Shown piece after piece: positions 52,446 through 64,000 of a DNA stretch of 64,000 nucleotides (the stretch's first letter is position 1; each line of letters begins with the position of its first letter). The stretch is taken from NCBI GenBank assembly GCA_019873725.1, contig JAIOAS010000001.1, positions 40,257-104,256 of the forward strand. The letters are read 5' to 3'. The translations under genes and the position numbers were made by a program. The notes below the pieces were generated by a model. It was given only the letters and a program-made list of their open reading frames with translations. It ran no database searches and had not been told where the DNA came from. Source of the stretch: Chloroflexota bacterium. GTDB taxonomy: Bacteria; Chloroflexota; Anaerolineae; B4-G1; SLSP01.

Positions 52446-52829
52446 TTATTCTTCTTCCCCAGCCAACTCCGTGCCTTTGCGAAAGGCCATCAAACTGGCG
52501 TCGCGAATGCCCTTCATCAAGCGTTCATCTTTTTCCAGCAGGGCGTACAACTCTTCACGGCTCAGAATTGGTGATAATGCGATCTTCATTGTGTGCGTTT
52601 TGGCTTTTCCCTGCCCACCGGTGGCCGAGCCTTCGAAGACTTGCGGAATGGATATCTTCAGACCTGTTTCAGCCTCGTAGGAGAGTTCCACGGCAATTTC
52701 CAACTCAACTTTATCCACAAAGAAAACCGGATAAGCGGCTTTGCCATGTGCGGTGGTTCCCGCATAAGGTGAAAACAAGTCGCTTTTTACTTTCTCAATG
52801 AGGTCCTGGAAGGTGATTTCTTTAGTCAT
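52446..52829 (-). CDS. small protein co-encoded with the CHAT protease (possibly Trypco2-like), hypothetical
   Basis: 127-aa ORF 16 nt downstream of the CHAT gene. Any 'Trypco2-like' assignment is a guess from context only. Confidence 0.4.
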   Translation of the reverse strand: MTKEITFQDLIEKVKSDLFSPYAGTTAHGKAAYPVFFVDKVELEIAVELSYEAETGLKISIPQVFEGSATGGQGKAKTHTMKIALSPILSREELYALLEKDERLMKGIRDASLMAFRKGTELAGEEE

Positions 52830-52845
52830 CGCAAACTCCTTTCAG

Positions 52846-54369
52846 CTATTGGGCGAATAGTTGACCATAGGTATCGTCTGAACTGCGCAAATAAACTATC
52901 GGCATAAACCAGGCCGGCGGTTTGTCGCGGAAAATCGCACGTCGTCCACTATTCACGGCATCGGGCAAACGTTTGGATTCGGCTAGCATACTGTAGACGC
53001 GCTCGAAAAACTTCACCATTGCCTTGACCGGCGGCGATCCCTGCATTCCCAACACCGCAGGGATACCGGCCTGAATCAATCCCGGCGCTACACCATTAAA
53101 CACACTGGTCCCCTGTGTGACTGCCGAACCACACGCAGACAAGACGACGAGGCGCGTGTCGGCATTATGGAACAGTGGCGTGAGATCATCCACGCTCACC
53201 GGGTCACTGTGTTTGGCGTCATCTTCAAAGTGCAAATACCCTTTGGGTGGATTGTCGCTCATATCCCCTTGACAGGCTACACATCGGGTCGTATTGGGAT
53301 AGTGCGCTTTATCACACACCGGGCACCGGCGTGCAAATGTACCATGCCCATCAAAATGCACGATATGAAACACCTGGTGGTTGAGCGTGCTTTCCAAAGC
53401 GTCCCACGTGGGCGGATTCAAGTATTCCCAGTCCAGTTTTCCCGCTTGTCGCAGTGGCTCCAATGCTTTGGTGATAGCCTGAACTTCATCAGCGTCCGGC
53501 AATCGGTCTTCATTGTCGGGGCGTGACATCACGAAAAGCACTTTCAACGGCGGTGCAACTTTGAATGGCGTGGGTTTCTCGCCAAACGTGATATAGCGTG
53601 TCAGTTCCAGTCCATTTTTTGTGAGGAGTGGGTGGGTACTACCGTCGTGTAACACTTCCCAGGGGAATTGCGCCAGAAGCGTGTCTTCGGGATCGAAACA
53701 CAACTGGCAGGCTACGGGAGGTTTATCCCGCGCTCGGGATAATTCGGTCTGCATTGGCCCGGCGAAAAGTGCGCGATACAGCTTCTGTCCGACGATTTTG
53801 TGGAACTCCGCGTGGAGACGGTTATCGTGAAGCAATCCCATGTTTTCCAATGCCTGGACATATTCCGCCTTGAAACGCTCCGGCACAAAAGCGCCCACAT
53901 CCAACGCCTTGAGAACGGCCTTCAGTTCGTCAAACGAGAAGGGTAAGTCCACTTCGGCTTTTGGTTCACCGCCGCCGGGAACTTTGAGGCCACGGATTTC
54001 CATCTTCGATGCCTCACAGTGCAGAAGTTGCACGCGAAGCACAGAGAAAGGCTGTTCGTCCGGCGCTGCATTTCCTTCTATCTTCTCGGACATCTGCTGC
54101 AGCAGGCGTTTGAGGTTCTCCATCTCATCCTGCAATTGCTGTATATGAGGATCTTGTGACACAACGCCTGGTTCGACAAATGGCGCTAACTCTTGTCGGA
54201 TTTCCTGAATTTGCTTATCAAGATGCGCGCCTTCTCTGCGGAGACGAAGACGATCAACATCCGACAACGTGCGGCTCAATTGATTGTTCACCGCTTCGTA
54301 CTCCTCAATCAGATTGTTCAAGCGAGTTTGTAAGGCTCTACGTTTGTAGTCAGGCAAGGTGTTGGGCAT
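52846..54369 (-). CDS. CHAT-domain caspase-like protease with N-terminal coiled-coil effector-associated domain
   Basis: Catalytic dyad contexts HIVHFDGHGTF and RLVVLSACGSAVTQ. N-terminal LPDYKRRALQTRLNNLIEEYEAVNNQLSRTLSDVDRLRLRR is shared with three other proteins in the operon. Confidence 0.75.
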   Translation of the reverse strand: MPNTLPDYKRRALQTRLNNLIEEYEAVNNQLSRTLSDVDRLRLRREGAHLDKQIQEIRQELAPFVEPGVVSQDPHIQQLQDEMENLKRLLQQMSEKIEGNAAPDEQPFSVLRVQLLHCEASKMEIRGLKVPGGGEPKAEVDLPFSFDELKAVLKALDVGAFVPERFKAEYVQALENMGLLHDNRLHAEFHKIVGQKLYRALFAGPMQTELSRARDKPPVACQLCFDPEDTLLAQFPWEVLHDGSTHPLLTKNGLELTRYITFGEKPTPFKVAPPLKVLFVMSRPDNEDRLPDADEVQAITKALEPLRQAGKLDWEYLNPPTWDALESTLNHQVFHIVHFDGHGTFARRCPVCDKAHYPNTTRCVACQGDMSDNPPKGYLHFEDDAKHSDPVSVDDLTPLFHNADTRLVVLSACGSAVTQGTSVFNGVAPGLIQAGIPAVLGMQGSPPVKAMVKFFERVYSMLAESKRLPDAVNSGRRAIFRDKPPAWFMPIVYLRSSDDTYGQLFAQ

Positions 54370-54432
54370 TTGTTACTCTCCATAACGATGTGGCTGCGAT
54401 TTCCAAATCGCGTGGTCTGGAATCTCCCACCG

Positions 54433-61820: not shown

Positions 61821-61824
61821 TGGG

Positions 61825-62814
61825 CTATAGTTTCCCCGCTCGCCAACGAGCTTCGAGATCCTCAACCTGCTTCCGTTTTTCTTCCAGGTCAAGTTGCAGG
61901 TGTACGGGAATCGCCGAGGCTGCATACGCCCCGGCCTGCGTTTCCAGGAGTGCCAGGGCGCGGCGTGCCATCACCAATGCGGGCGGTTCCGGGGTAGGCG
62001 GGTTTGCTGTGGACAATGGCTTTGACGTGGATGTGCATTCTAATTGCGCATCAATCTCCCCAATCTGGCGTTCCAGATCATCCGCCGTGCGTCGCAAGCG
62101 CAGACGATCCACGTCGGAGAGTGCGCGATCCAGTTGCGCATTGGCAGCCGTAAATTCCTCGATCAGATGCGCCCGGCGGGATTCCAGGGCGCGGCGTTTG
62201 TAGTCGGACAAAGGATAAGCATTCACAGCATTCTCCTCCAGAAGTTCACTTTCGGATGACGGGAGTTGACCGGATTCATACAATGCTAATAACTCCTTGG
62301 CTTCTTCCATCGTAAACCCACAATATTCAGCATACCGAGCTAGAGCACCCGGATATTGGGACTCCAATTCACGCCCACGCTGCAGAAACAATAGGCTCGA
62401 GGGCATCAAAACAGCTCTGGCTTGAACATTGTGTTCCACGGGTACGATTTGGGCTTCGGGATATGCCTCCTGAATCCTGTTCAGCAATTCTTCAAAACGC
62501 GTCACCAGCACGTTTTCAAATTCACAGTGTGCCGTTACTTTGAGGCGAGTTTCTCGGACTGCCACGACGTGAAATACGATGACGTCTAGATTGGGATGTG
62601 CATTGATGATGTTGCCGGTTTCGTCCTCAGTGATCAATCCACCAGTGATGACGACGCGCCCGTGACTGTAGTCTGAATATGCGCCCCGAAGCGTAAGATG
62701 ACCTCGCTTTCCTAACGAGAAAATGTCAGGCTGGGAATAACGGCTTGTGACATCCTCCAACAAGCGTGCAAAGCGCTCAAATTGCGTATCGACGTAGAAT
62801 TCACGCTCGATCAT
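61825..62814 (-). CDS. hypothetical protein with C-terminal coiled-coil EAD
   Basis: C-terminus PLSDYKRRALESRRAHLIEEFTAANAQLDRALSDVDRLRLRRTADDLERQIGEIDAQL. N-terminal ~190 aa are of unknown function. Confidence 0.45.
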   Translation of the reverse strand: MIEREFYVDTQFERFARLLEDVTSRYSQPDIFSLGKRGHLTLRGAYSDYSHGRVVITGGLITEDETGNIINAHPNLDVIVFHVVAVRETRLKVTAHCEFENVLVTRFEELLNRIQEAYPEAQIVPVEHNVQARAVLMPSSLLFLQRGRELESQYPGALARYAEYCGFTMEEAKELLALYESGQLPSSESELLEENAVNAYPLSDYKRRALESRRAHLIEEFTAANAQLDRALSDVDRLRLRRTADDLERQIGEIDAQLECTSTSKPLSTANPPTPEPPALVMARRALALLETQAGAYAASAIPVHLQLDLEEKRKQVEDLEARWRAGKL

Positions 62815-62817
62815 GTC

Positions 62818-64000
62818 TCATTTTCGCATCATCACAGCACTGGAACGTAATACTATGGGTAAGTAAACCTTGTATCGTCCCATTGGACGGAAATATTGCC
62901 CCTTATTATCCGTAGTTGAAACATTTCCAGCAGCATCCAGGATTTGGACAAAGTACTCAATGTCTGCGGACTCTGGCAATACGCCTCCCCATATACTGTT
63001 CACAGGATCGATCTCCTCCAAATCCAGTGTATTCCAGTTACCTGTTCCATCAGTATAGGCCACGATGACCCTCGCAATGCCTGAGAAATCCGTCGTCTCG
63101 ACTTCAAAAATCGTTTCATCACTTTGAACGCGTGCGTCGACAGCCCAGATGTTTGGTGGCAATCCATCCTTTTTGTTTGAATAATAGACAGTATATGTGA
63201 TATCCTCAAAGATCCGTTCAACACCTGTCACGGGTGTCGTCGCATGGTATTGCGCCGGGACAATAATAAGATTCTGGTCCAGGCCTTTTTGTGTGCGGAT
63301 GTTGTTGATAACGTCCCAAGTCGAAGGAACCCACATAGGAAAATCAAATTCTGGCTCCTGAGAGTCAGGTGGGACTCCATCAGTAATTATGCTGGTCACA
63401 ACAGGATCATATCCTTTCCAAGTATAATATGATCCACCCTCAAATATGACGCCGTGGGCGATAGTATCCGACAGCGAAATTTTGAGGTCAAGCCGTGGTT
63501 GTGTAGGTTGCCCCATATTCACTTCAACATTGCCCTGCAGAAGATACAGAGTGAGTGTCTCGGTTGTTGTCCCTGATGTAAAAGGTAAACAGCGCGCAGT
63601 CTGAGTTTGCATGCCAGCGAATTCAGGCCCCGCTTCCAGAGTACAAGGTGAGGGTTCATCTGCCAGTGCTATTGAGTTGTAGATTTGAGGCGGCAGACTG
63701 AACTTTTGCATTGGTAAACCGTAAAGCACGACCTGACTCAACACTTTCTCATCGTAAGGGCTAAAGGAATAGGCCGCTGTCTGATGATAATACGCTCTTT
63801 TCGCTTCTGAAAGTGCGGCTCCTACGGTCAAACCTTTTTTGAGGTTCTTCAAAAACAAGATACTCAGTAATTCTGAATATCCTACTTTTTCATAATCTCC
63901 ATATCCATAACCAGTATTCGCGATAAAGGTTTTCCCTTTGCTCGCCAAGGCTTGAGAGAAGTCGAGTGCGTAACGTTTGAAGGCTGATTGCCTATCGGGG
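62818..64000 (-). CDS. partial ORF (C-terminal part; reading frame continues past the window end), low-GC, hypothetical
   Basis: ORF open to the window edge. The 'M' in the track is a TTG codon and the frame continues upstream. GC ~45%. Confidence 0.4.
   Translation of the reverse strand, partial: PDRQSAFKRYALDFSQALASKGKTFIANTGYGYGDYEKVGYSELLSILFLKNLKKGLTVGAALSEAKRAYYHQTAAYSFSPYDEKVLSQVVLYGLPMQKFSLPPQIYNSIALADEPSPCTLEAGPEFAGMQTQTARCLPFTSGTTTETLTLYLLQGNVEVNMGQPTQPRLDLKISLSDTIAHGVIFEGGSYYTWKGYDPVVTSIITDGVPPDSQEPEFDFPMWVPSTWDVINNIRTQKGLDQNLIIVPAQYHATTPVTGVERIFEDITYTVYYSNKKDGLPPNIWAVDARVQSDETIFEVETTDFSGIARVIVAYTDGTGNWNTLDLEEIDPVNSIWGGVLPESADIEYFVQILDAAGNVSTTDNKGQYFRPMGRYKVYLPIVLRSSAVMMRK

Follow-up and report, generated by a model that had tools for sequence, protein, structure and literature searches.

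The 64,000-nt stretch of Chloroflexota DNA analyzed here (the window; all coordinates are window positions) ends in a dense gene cluster, 52446-64000, in which all long open reading frames (ORFs, n=9) lie on the minus strand. We numbered the genes g1 to g9 in transcription order and assign the cluster to the iSTAND-type MoxR-vWA ternary conflict systems, a kind of immunity or programmed-death system that was defined by Kaur et al. 2020 and is known as a class from comparative genomics alone. The genes, with protein lengths in amino acids (aa) and with the effector-associated domain EAD9 where present, are:

62818 to beyond 64000, minus: g1 (partial), last 393 aa of a 2504-aa protein
61825-62814, minus: g2, 329 aa, novel N-domain, EAD9 and conserved tail
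60786-61820, minus: g3, 344 aa, EAD9 and iSTAND
59840-60775, minus: g4, 311 aa, AAA+ ATPase, putatively MoxR-like
58752-59840, minus: g5, 362 aa, CoxE-type vWA protein without a fused effector
55050-58745, minus: g6, 1231 aa, constant N-module, bDLD1-like domain, NB-ARC and TPR
54433-54978, minus: g7, 181 aa, EAD9 and bDLD1, a stand-alone two-adaptor protein
52846-54369, minus: g8, 507 aa, EAD9 and CHAT caspase-like protease
52446-52829, minus: g9, 127 aa, Trypco2 (= Pepco)

An original prediction, made from the letters of the window, had described an 11.5-kb single-strand operon of nine tightly spaced genes. The spacing was borne out: intergenic distances from g1 to g9 are, in order, 3, 4, 10, -1, 6, 71, 63 and 16 nt. 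The stop codon of g4 and the ATG of g5 have one base in common at 59840 (TGATG), as predicted, and the same g5 start, giving a 362-aa vWA protein, was called in Logan contig L001, which is 100% identical to the window over a 7744-nt overlap and extends past the window edge. A second overlap, placed near 60786, arises only with an ATG at 60799; the g3/g4 junction is probably a 10-nt gap instead, because the ATG at 60775 has an AGGAGG Shine-Dalgarno sequence, matches the start called in the identical contig and lets orthologues align from residue 1. The nine same-strand ORFs are there as described, but the first has no start in the window and no in-frame stop up to its edge: 62818-64000 is the 3' end of a gene whose full length (L001 2483-9997) encodes 2504 aa. 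Upstream of g1, L001 carries a further gene, for an 844-aa EAD9-AAA_16-TPR STAND protein. Because this gene and the rest of g1 lie beyond the window, the unit is longer than the predicted 11.5 kb and comes to about 20 kb or more; the sequence covered stops short of its 5' end.

The EAD9 module and its carriers

Four proteins (g8, g7, g3 and g2) share a helical segment of 57-60 aa with the signature 'LPDYKRRAL...', which had been described as a common coiled-coil module and proposed to be an effector-associated domain of conflict systems. Profile searches agreed with both statements: in 4/4 proteins the segment matches Pfam EAD9 (PF19962), a family defined in Kaur et al. 2020, above the gathering score (42.8-53.4 bits, cutoff 25).

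54184-54357, minus: EAD9 in g8, aa 5-62, Pfam E 2.2e-14
54799-54969, minus: EAD9 in g7, aa 4-60, Pfam E 3e-12
61644-61811, minus: EAD9 in g3, aa 4-59, Pfam E 2.3e-11
62038-62202, minus: EAD9 in g2, aa 205-259, Pfam E 4.5e-11

Pairwise local scores of the copies were 8-25 standard deviations above 2000 composition-preserving shuffles, none of which reached the observed values, whereas other coiled-coil stretches of the same proteins scored at background level in this test. An alignment of 19 copies from the window and related loci showed conservation column by column. The segment is charged and helical, and it also draws weak matches from many coiled-coil families of Pfam; likeness by coiled-coil composition alone, an objection that the original prediction had raised against itself, is nevertheless vanishingly improbable and was rejected because of the Pfam matches, the shuffle scores and the column conservation.

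The module is N-terminal in the CHAT protein and in the 181-aa adaptor, as first described. Its copy in g3 is N-terminal as well, but it is divergent rather than degenerate, and in g2 it is followed by 70 aa, including a separately conserved tail, so that it does not form the C-terminus assigned to it. The 844-aa upstream protein has a fifth copy. An AlphaFold2 model of EAD9 is a two-helix hairpin (pLDDT 83-88). Kaur et al. (2020, eLife), who defined EAD1-10, placed EAD9 among the adaptors that recruit signaling components.

In g3, EAD9 precedes an iSTAND domain (Pfam PF19995, 46.6 bits versus a cutoff of 24, E 6.5e-12) that had gone unrecognized in the original prediction. The protein has no Walker A motif (GxxxxGK[ST]), the equivalent site, QNAxxMGG, is invariant in 9 homologues, and iSTAND identity among relatives is 43-71%. 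By its motifs, g3 is an inactive STAND domain and the system-defining third component. The iSTAND and its neighbors g8, g7 and g2 thus all carry EAD9.

The g4 ATPase (Walker A GEAGCGKT) matches AAA_5 (30 bits) and the generic AAA family (31 bits) equally, both above the Pfam cutoff, and its best solved relatives are midasin AAA domains, with a weak match. The 56 residues before Walker A contain no tryptophan and hence none of the VMAP-type N-terminal aromatic motifs (WxhapG, PsWRxa). In relatives the AAA gene always precedes the vWA gene. The product of the latter, g5, matched Pfam VWA_CoxE (1.6e-13) and, under its 200-bit cutoff, NCBIfam SAV_2336_NTERM (5e-16, 58.5 bits). All family assignments in the cluster other than the MoxR label are backed by curated profiles above threshold.

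The protein encoded after the vWA gene, g6, is composed of four parts:

~58101-58745, minus: constant N-module, vWA-L-like, aa 1-~215
57780-58031, minus: bDLD1-like Death-like domain, aa ~239-322
56910-57536, minus: NB-ARC, aa ~404-612, Pfam 6.6e-7
55113-56360, minus: TPR repeats, aa ~796-1211, TPR_12 3e-68

The N-module is 44-62% identical to the N-terminus of every post-vWA protein in the related loci, in which the C-termini differ (nSTAND1, FGE-sulfatase, kinase plus STAND), and a protein with this module also follows the vWA gene in the distant loci L014 and L015. More than 200 further homologues, mostly cyanobacterial, join it to FGE-sulfatase (FGS), TIR, caspase, GUN4, sigma-70 r4, EAD1 or STAND domains, which begin at aa ~226-296. 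The N-module would fit the published vWA-L plus separate-gene effector arrangement, described for a minority of iSTAND systems. Since g6 carries the constant module that follows the vWA gene, it appears to fill the vWA-linked variable effector/sensor slot and not to be a second core. The combination that had been predicted as two cores in one transcription unit is not unusual: among the STAND modules linked to vWA components, those made of an AP-ATPase and TPRs occur most often (Kaur et al. 2020). The NB-ARC domain scored 29.3 bits (cutoff 23.5) and has a Walker A (GMGGAGKT) and a Walker B-like motif (LLLFDNA). In a homologue search with g6 aa 1-330, g6 itself was not returned and the best match was 58% identical, whereas searches with g2 and g3 each gave a 100% self-match from an NCBI contig; that assembly may lack g6 or carry another annotation for it.

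Between the N-module and NB-ARC, after a low-complexity linker (aa ~215-240), g6 has a segment that scored below the Pfam bDLD1 cutoff (E 0.012, 16.4 bits versus 25), matched g7 by BLASTP at 1e-8 and gave pairwise z values of 16 against g7 and 26 against a third copy, found in a 160-aa protein elsewhere in the window. By these similarities it is a diverged bDLD1. The g7 copy (EAD3, PF20689; aa 79-171) is clear, with 42.6 bits versus a cutoff of 25 and E 8e-11. The g7 orthologue in the related locus L002 is 91% identical. In another, L003, the post-vWA protein carries EAD9 and bDLD1 as a C-terminal fusion (78% identity to the g7 domains), and because of this Rosetta-stone link we expect the adaptor and the post-vWA protein to be coupled.

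The CHAT domain of g8 (Pfam 1.4e-34, 120 bits) has the predicted catalytic motifs HFDGHG (338-343, His342) and LSAC (410-413, Cys413). The protein contains no sensor domain; EAD9 is its sole non-catalytic module, and the EAD9 partners are encoded in adjacent genes. Between the His and Cys motifs lies a Cys4 zinc-ribbon-like insert (CPVC...CVAC, aa ~347-366, window 53300-53360). The g9 gene starts 16 nt past the CHAT stop and encodes a Trypco2 protein (Pfam 1.8e-12, 47.8 bits) with a C-terminal tail of 40 aa (aa 88-127) that is 42% charged and has no proline; its orthologue in L002 is 98% identical. Pepco (Trypco1/2) proteins encoded beside serine or cysteine proteases were shown by experiment to be pore toxins freed by C-terminal cleavage (Evans et al. 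2025, bioRxiv 10.1101/2025.11.14.688446); in such modules a beta-barrel oligomer is formed beforehand and becomes active once its C-terminal tail is cut off at a specific site. By analogy, g9 is a candidate protease-activated beta-barrel pore toxin, both pore and cleavage being predicted. It is more likely that CHAT is a signaling protease with the adjacent Trypco2/Pepco as its substrate than that it is the terminal effector proposed originally, and Trypco2 is the likely executioner in its place.

The remaining EAD9 protein of the window, g2, consists of an alpha+beta N-domain (aa 1-125, pLDDT 90.7), a variable helical insert, EAD9 and a C-terminal helical tail (aa 262-329). The N-domain has fold-level similarity only, to KA1, TBP-like and Bet v1-like domains, and six g2 homologues were found; g2 is by its sequence a novel EAD9 cargo protein. 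The tail (61825-62027), ~50-68 aa long with the consensus 'PALxMARRALAxLETQAGAYAxSxIPxHLQLxLEEKRKQVEELEARWRAGKL', is 75-86% identical across otherwise different proteins. It ends the gene directly upstream of EAD9-iSTAND in 4/4 loci examined and also one non-adjacent L003 protein; outside the window it occurs in L011 7393-10122 and in L003 6013-7026 and 1447-2256. In L011 the protein that it ends, directly upstream of iSTAND, is an unrelated EAD9-zinc-ribbon-coiled-coil protein. This tail may be an undescribed adaptor-like module.

Full-length g1 has an N-terminal signal/transmembrane anchor, a right-handed NosD-like beta-helix array of ~1400 aa (Pfam Beta_helix 3e-41, NosD 7e-36), a Peptidase_C25-like domain with the motifs NAHFSHWE and SVGCHAG, and C-terminal beta domains. 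Its C-terminal 660 aa are 44% identical to protein P0143, whose aa 51-369 match Peptidase_C25; a sequence search of the PDB with the C-terminal 837 aa gave no match. Because g1 has no EAD, its C-terminal module is generic and it is absent from more distant loci, its membership in the system is doubtful. We rejected it as a system-specific component given the size of the family (2408 relatives of the C-terminal module) and that absence. The protein ends in '...YLPIVLR...' and P0143 in 'WLPLVFR', which may be a Chloroflexota sorting signal.

Related loci and known systems

Searches with the cluster proteins led to the following loci:

L002, Anaerolineae metagenome-assembled genome (MAG): X-EAD9, EAD9-iSTAND, AAA, vWA, N-module plus STAND, EAD9-bDLD1, EAD9-CHAT, Trypco2, in the same order
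L003, MAG/metagenome: EAD9-bDLD1 fused to the post-vWA protein, EAD9-Peptidase_C14 present
L004, L006 and L007, metagenomes: core with kinase-STAND (cut in L006), L004 and L007 with EAD9-Peptidase_C14
L011, MAG: further EAD9 proteins
L014, Coleofasciculus (cyanobacterium): Trypco1, Trypsin-EAD9, EAD9-iSTAND, AAA, vWA, N-module-FGS
L015, metagenome of unclassified taxon: TIR-EAD9, EAD9-iSTAND, AAA, vWA, N-module-TIR
L004 144-11261, L006 1861-11732 and L007 1-9394: spans with the system embedded in BREX-like loci

The order EAD9-iSTAND, AAA, vWA, N-module with a variable part and EAD9-caspase-like protease recurs in Anaerolineae MAGs and metagenomes. The equivalent of g8 is an EAD9-Peptidase_C14 protein in L003, L004 and L007, and trypsin/Trypco1 (L014) or TIR (L015) replaces CHAT in an otherwise same layout; all loci examined combine EAD9-iSTAND with a protease or TIR that bears an EAD9 tag. 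In L002 the flanking genes are 81-98% identical to those of the window and the g1-g2 linkage is kept, yet the post-vWA protein has the N-module only in common with g6, NB-ARC-TPR being swapped for nSTAND1. Because everything after the N-module is swapped despite such flanks, the core layout appears to be canonical and the variable slot to turn over quickly; diversification by exchange of modules is a typical trait of conflict systems. L004 and L007 carry the core and the EAD9-caspase between a PglX-like methyltransferase and BrxL of a BREX locus, and L006 has a faint PglZ match upstream.

Close relatives of g3 amounted to 11 matches. We did not take this as rarity of the architecture, which is ruled out by the distant EAD9-iSTAND systems in L014 and L015. 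A scan of genome contigs returned the L002 genome as the single relative, and one of viral contigs returned no relative. A metagenome scan with the adaptor alignment gave, among the matches listed, the L003 contig and one EAD9-only fragment.

The original prediction had seen the logic of NTP-dependent conflict systems in this cluster, and profiles for EAD9, iSTAND, bDLD1 and Trypco2, all families from Kaur et al. 2020, supported it. The iSTAND systems and the homotypic coupling of EADs were defined in that work (eLife), together with a proposed order in which the third component senses and the vWA-linked module is the effector, and with an enrichment of ternary conflict systems in multicellular bacteria; bDLDs, iSTAND2 and separate vWA-L genes were added by Kaur et al. 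2021. Dore et al. (PNAS 2024) argued the reverse, assigning the sensing to the variable module linked to vWA. In a 2026 preprint, experiments supported a MoxR-vWA pathway for threat sensing in which filamentous sensors at the cell surface respond to epibionts.

Our cluster resembles the systems of Kaur et al. in its EAD-iSTAND third component followed by a putatively MoxR-like AAA+ ATPase and a CoxE-type vWA protein, in a variable module that is probably attached through a constant linker (here a separate gene beside vWA), in an EAD-tagged peptidase of the same operon and in its filamentous (Anaerolineae-like) host lineage. It differs from them in that the variable module is, judged by its motifs, an active-type STAND (NB-ARC-TPR) with an internal bDLD1, that a stand-alone EAD9-bDLD1 protein joins both adaptor types, that CHAT has Trypco2 as its partner (in the papers Trypco goes with trypsin, and caspases go with alpha/beta-hydrolase) and that two more proteins bear EAD9, namely g2 and the STAND-TPR protein encoded upstream. 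The bridging protein, the bDLD1-bearing STAND in the variable slot, the CHAT-Trypco2 pairing, the novel EAD9 cargo and a neighboring diversity-generating retroelement (DGR) that shares bDLD1 set this locus apart. In the searchable literature text, which excludes figures and most supplements, we found no description of a stand-alone EAD9-bDLD1 protein, and the text supplement of Kaur et al. 2020 has no EAD9, bDLD1 or Trypco2 entries.

The g8-g9 pair is like the protease-Pepco modules of Evans et al. 2025, a family reported with serine or cysteine proteases, in that a Trypco2 protein of ~120 aa with a charged C-terminal tail lies beside a protease. In contrast, the characterized protease is fused to its sensor (Avs4), whereas g8 has the EAD9 tag alone and would have to be recruited in trans, and the g9 tail is longer (40 aa) and has no proline. 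A further parallel is with animal FADD and ASC, the adaptors of the death-inducing signaling complex (DISC) and inflammasomes: g7 is also a small protein with two different homotypic domains, one of them Death-like, and by analogy could connect an NTPase or receptor that has a Death-like tag with a caspase-like protease that is tagged as well. This is a likeness of logic and not of family, as EAD9 is a helical hairpin and not a Death fold, and bDLD1 is only distantly Death-related. A stand-alone two-adaptor protein of the g7 type would be the closest bacterial analogue of FADD/ASC.

Proposed mechanism and its alternatives

The sequences themselves show which domains are present, that the adaptors form paralogous pairs, that gene order is conserved and that modules are swapped. 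The reading that we favor, and consider moderately probable as a whole, is an iSTAND-type MoxR-vWA ternary immunity/death system wired by two kinds of homotypic adaptors, EAD9 and bDLD1. At rest, the parts would be held apart or inactive, the AAA+/vWA pair serving as an ATP-dependent threshold or chaperone switch. A ligand derived from an invader would be sensed by the modules that are exchanged quickly (the TPR arm of the NB-ARC protein, the iSTAND or both), and NTP-dependent oligomerization would follow. Contacts of bDLD1 with bDLD1 (g6-g7) and of EAD9 with EAD9 (g7 and g3 with g8) would then gather CHAT on a platform in the style of FADD/ASC and caspases. Activated by proximity, CHAT would clip the charged C-terminal tail of Trypco2/Pepco, and the beta-barrel of the latter would permeabilize the membrane, killing the infected cell of the filament. 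Both partners of each predicted contact are encoded side by side, which makes for a compact wiring diagram, and the likely substrate of the protease has a defined biochemical read-out, tail cleavage and then pore formation. Thus, the idea of a bacterial apoptosome or inflammasome with adaptors becomes testable with a handful of proteins.

Several points weigh against this reading. The homotypic contacts of EAD9 and bDLD1 are predicted. The L002 post-vWA protein has no detectable bDLD1 although the EAD9-bDLD1 adaptor is present, so the g6-g7 bDLD1 link is not universal. In L003, L004 and L007 no Trypco2 lies beside the EAD9-caspase, and the protease must therefore have other substrates there. 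Because AAA_5 and AAA match g4 equally and midasin weakly, its MoxR label draws on weak AAA_5/midasin similarity and on context and is putative, and the MIDAS-like (metal ion-dependent adhesion site) motif of g5 reads DQNGS instead of DxSxS. Co-transcription of g1-g9 is suggested by spacing alone; a promoter and terminator scan was uninformative, terminator-like sites being fewer than in shuffles. Neither PADLOC, which has no model for such a system, nor NCBIfam gave a system-level or family-specific match above cutoff. Finally, the direction of signaling is disputed, as Kaur et al. have the third component sense and the vWA-linked module act, and Dore et al. the reverse.

It is from this dispute that the best surviving alternative comes. 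With the same parts and the order proposed by Kaur et al. for VMAP/iSTAND systems, iSTAND would be the invader sensor (possibly binding nucleic acid), MoxR would remodel the vWA complex, and EAD9-recruited CHAT would cut g6 between the N-module and bDLD1-NB-ARC-TPR, freeing the STAND part as an effector platform, with Trypco2 as a side branch. In favor of this flow are the low-complexity linker at aa ~215-240 of g6, an iSTAND that is conserved yet divergent (43-71% identity) and the classing of EAD9 with the recruitment of 'signaling' peptidases. On the other hand, an NB-ARC-TPR protein does not kill by itself, sensing falls to the repeat arm in characterized Avs-type STANDs (as also stated by Dore et al.), and Pepco is the single component here for which lethal activity has been shown by experiment, for the family (Evans et al. 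2025). We regard this flow as unlikely, though as the main competitor.

It is also possible, with lower probability, that two or three independent systems stand side by side in a defense island (g2-g6, g7-g9 and the DGR-NACHT cassette described below), their shared domains being due to local duplication and not to physical cross-talk. The largest gaps, 71 and 63 nt, do flank g7; L004 and L007 have the core without the adaptor or Trypco2; protease-Pepco pairs are portable modules that work with many sensors (Evans et al. 2025); below 52 kb the GC content is 0.57-0.68 instead of 0.50-0.56; and Tad-pilus genes and a weak PglZ match short of the cutoff also occur in the window. However, the CHAT protein lacks a sensor domain and EAD9, with its partners in adjacent genes, is its only other module; in L003 adaptor and post-vWA protein form one polypeptide; and the constant company of EAD9-iSTAND with an EAD9-tagged protease or TIR across loci speaks for one system.

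Finally, the cluster might not be directed at phages and could serve threat or stress sensing or developmental cell death in a filamentous bacterium; the giant surface protein g1 would then sense outside the cell and pass its signal to the MoxR-vWA switch, in analogy to the Esr pathway. The 3-nt distance of g1 from g2, their linkage in L002, the epibiont response of the preprint and the enrichment of these systems in multicellular bacteria favor this, but g1 lacks an EAD and has a short cytoplasmic N-terminus, its C-terminal module comes from a very large generic family, it is absent from the more distant relatives L003, L004, L011, L014 and L015, and embedding in BREX loci points to defense against mobile genetic elements. 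We consider it a very improbable reading.

The neighboring retroelement cassette and the rest of the window

The third bDLD1 copy lies beyond the cluster in a 160-aa protein (47045-47527, minus; custom hidden Markov model 1.6e-16; Pfam 2.6e-12, 47.4 bits versus a cutoff of 25) and has pairwise z values of 23-26 against g7 and g6. The protein has a C-terminal 'IIYDQRGQQVVGTQINVAG' motif, and the stop of its gene overlaps the start of a NACHT-FGS gene targeted by a DGR. The cassette spans 38773-47527 on the minus strand:

44167-47052, minus: NACHT plus FGE-sulfatase, DGR target
42921-43976, minus: reverse transcriptase (RT), RVT_1 1e-14
42459-42818, minus: bAvd, 2e-21
42301-42421, minus: template repeat (TR), 121 nt
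39291-42041, minus: second NACHT plus FGE-sulfatase, DGR target
39318-39438 and 44194-44314, minus: variable repeats (VRs) within the NACHT-FGE-sulfatase genes
47045-47137, ~46870-46890, ~41890-41915 and 39085-39108: occurrences of the motif described below

All mismatches between TR and the VRs (18 and 14) are at TR adenines, and the cassette is a complete bona fide DGR. With RT, bAvd, TR and two VRs in NACHT-FGE-sulfatase genes it is like the DGR STAND-CLec(FGS) sensors of Dore et al. (PNAS 2024); its link to the EAD9 cluster is suggested by the shared bDLD1 alone. A motif, '[FY]DQ[RQ]xQxV..Q.N[IV].G', occurs C-terminally in the bDLD1 protein (aa 131), in the N-terminal region of each NACHT-FGS protein (aa 55 in one, aa 43 in the other) and at the N-terminus of a 111-aa protein (aa 4), and [FY]DQ[RQ]xQxV has no further occurrence in the six-frame ORFs of the window. 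One motif that stands C-terminally in a small protein and N-terminally in adjacent NOD-like receptors (NLRs) recalls the BASS amyloid motifs (Dyrka et al. 2020), although bDLD1 here replaces the Bell domain and the likeness would be one of gene-pair architecture.

Because g7 carries bDLD1, the DGR cassette could, speculatively, feed the same protease; hypermutating receptors that share an execution module are hinted at by a nearby DGR with the same Death-like domain. Taken further, the EAD9-bDLD1 protein would be a FADD/ASC-like hub that funnels three sensor types, namely MoxR-vWA-iSTAND, NB-ARC-TPR with a Death-like domain, and DGR NACHT-lectin receptors acting via the bDLD1 protein with its amyloid-like motif, onto one caspase-like protease and a pore-forming substrate. 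We hold this extension to be rather unlikely; if true, a filamentous Chloroflexota bacterium would have an inflammasome-like hub whose receptors diversify somatically.

Two genes sit between the EAD9 cluster and the DGR, where GC content rises to 0.62-0.68, and a sigma-70-like site (10/12) was seen at 52380-52351, upstream of the first:

51688-52089, minus: 133-aa multi-transmembrane protein, precedes the 1316-aa gene
47653-51603, minus: 1316-aa protein with a Q/S/G/E-rich low-complexity center and a weak C-terminal HerA/FtsK-like P-loop (DUF87 E 0.016)

Elsewhere in the window, the region 6190-8388, 8352-12557 and 15019-18456 has a weak PglZ match just below cutoff (24.7 bits versus 25, E 2.5e-5), the PglZ-like protein adjoining two very large proteins (1401 and 1145 aa) without a Pfam match. 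A BREX-like system may lie here, in which case the window would be a defense island. A Tad/Flp-pilus-like gene set at 29248-36604 includes a CpaE-like ParA/MinD ATPase (34124-35626), a T2SSE/CpaF ATPase (31827-33266) and T2SSF (29248-30156).

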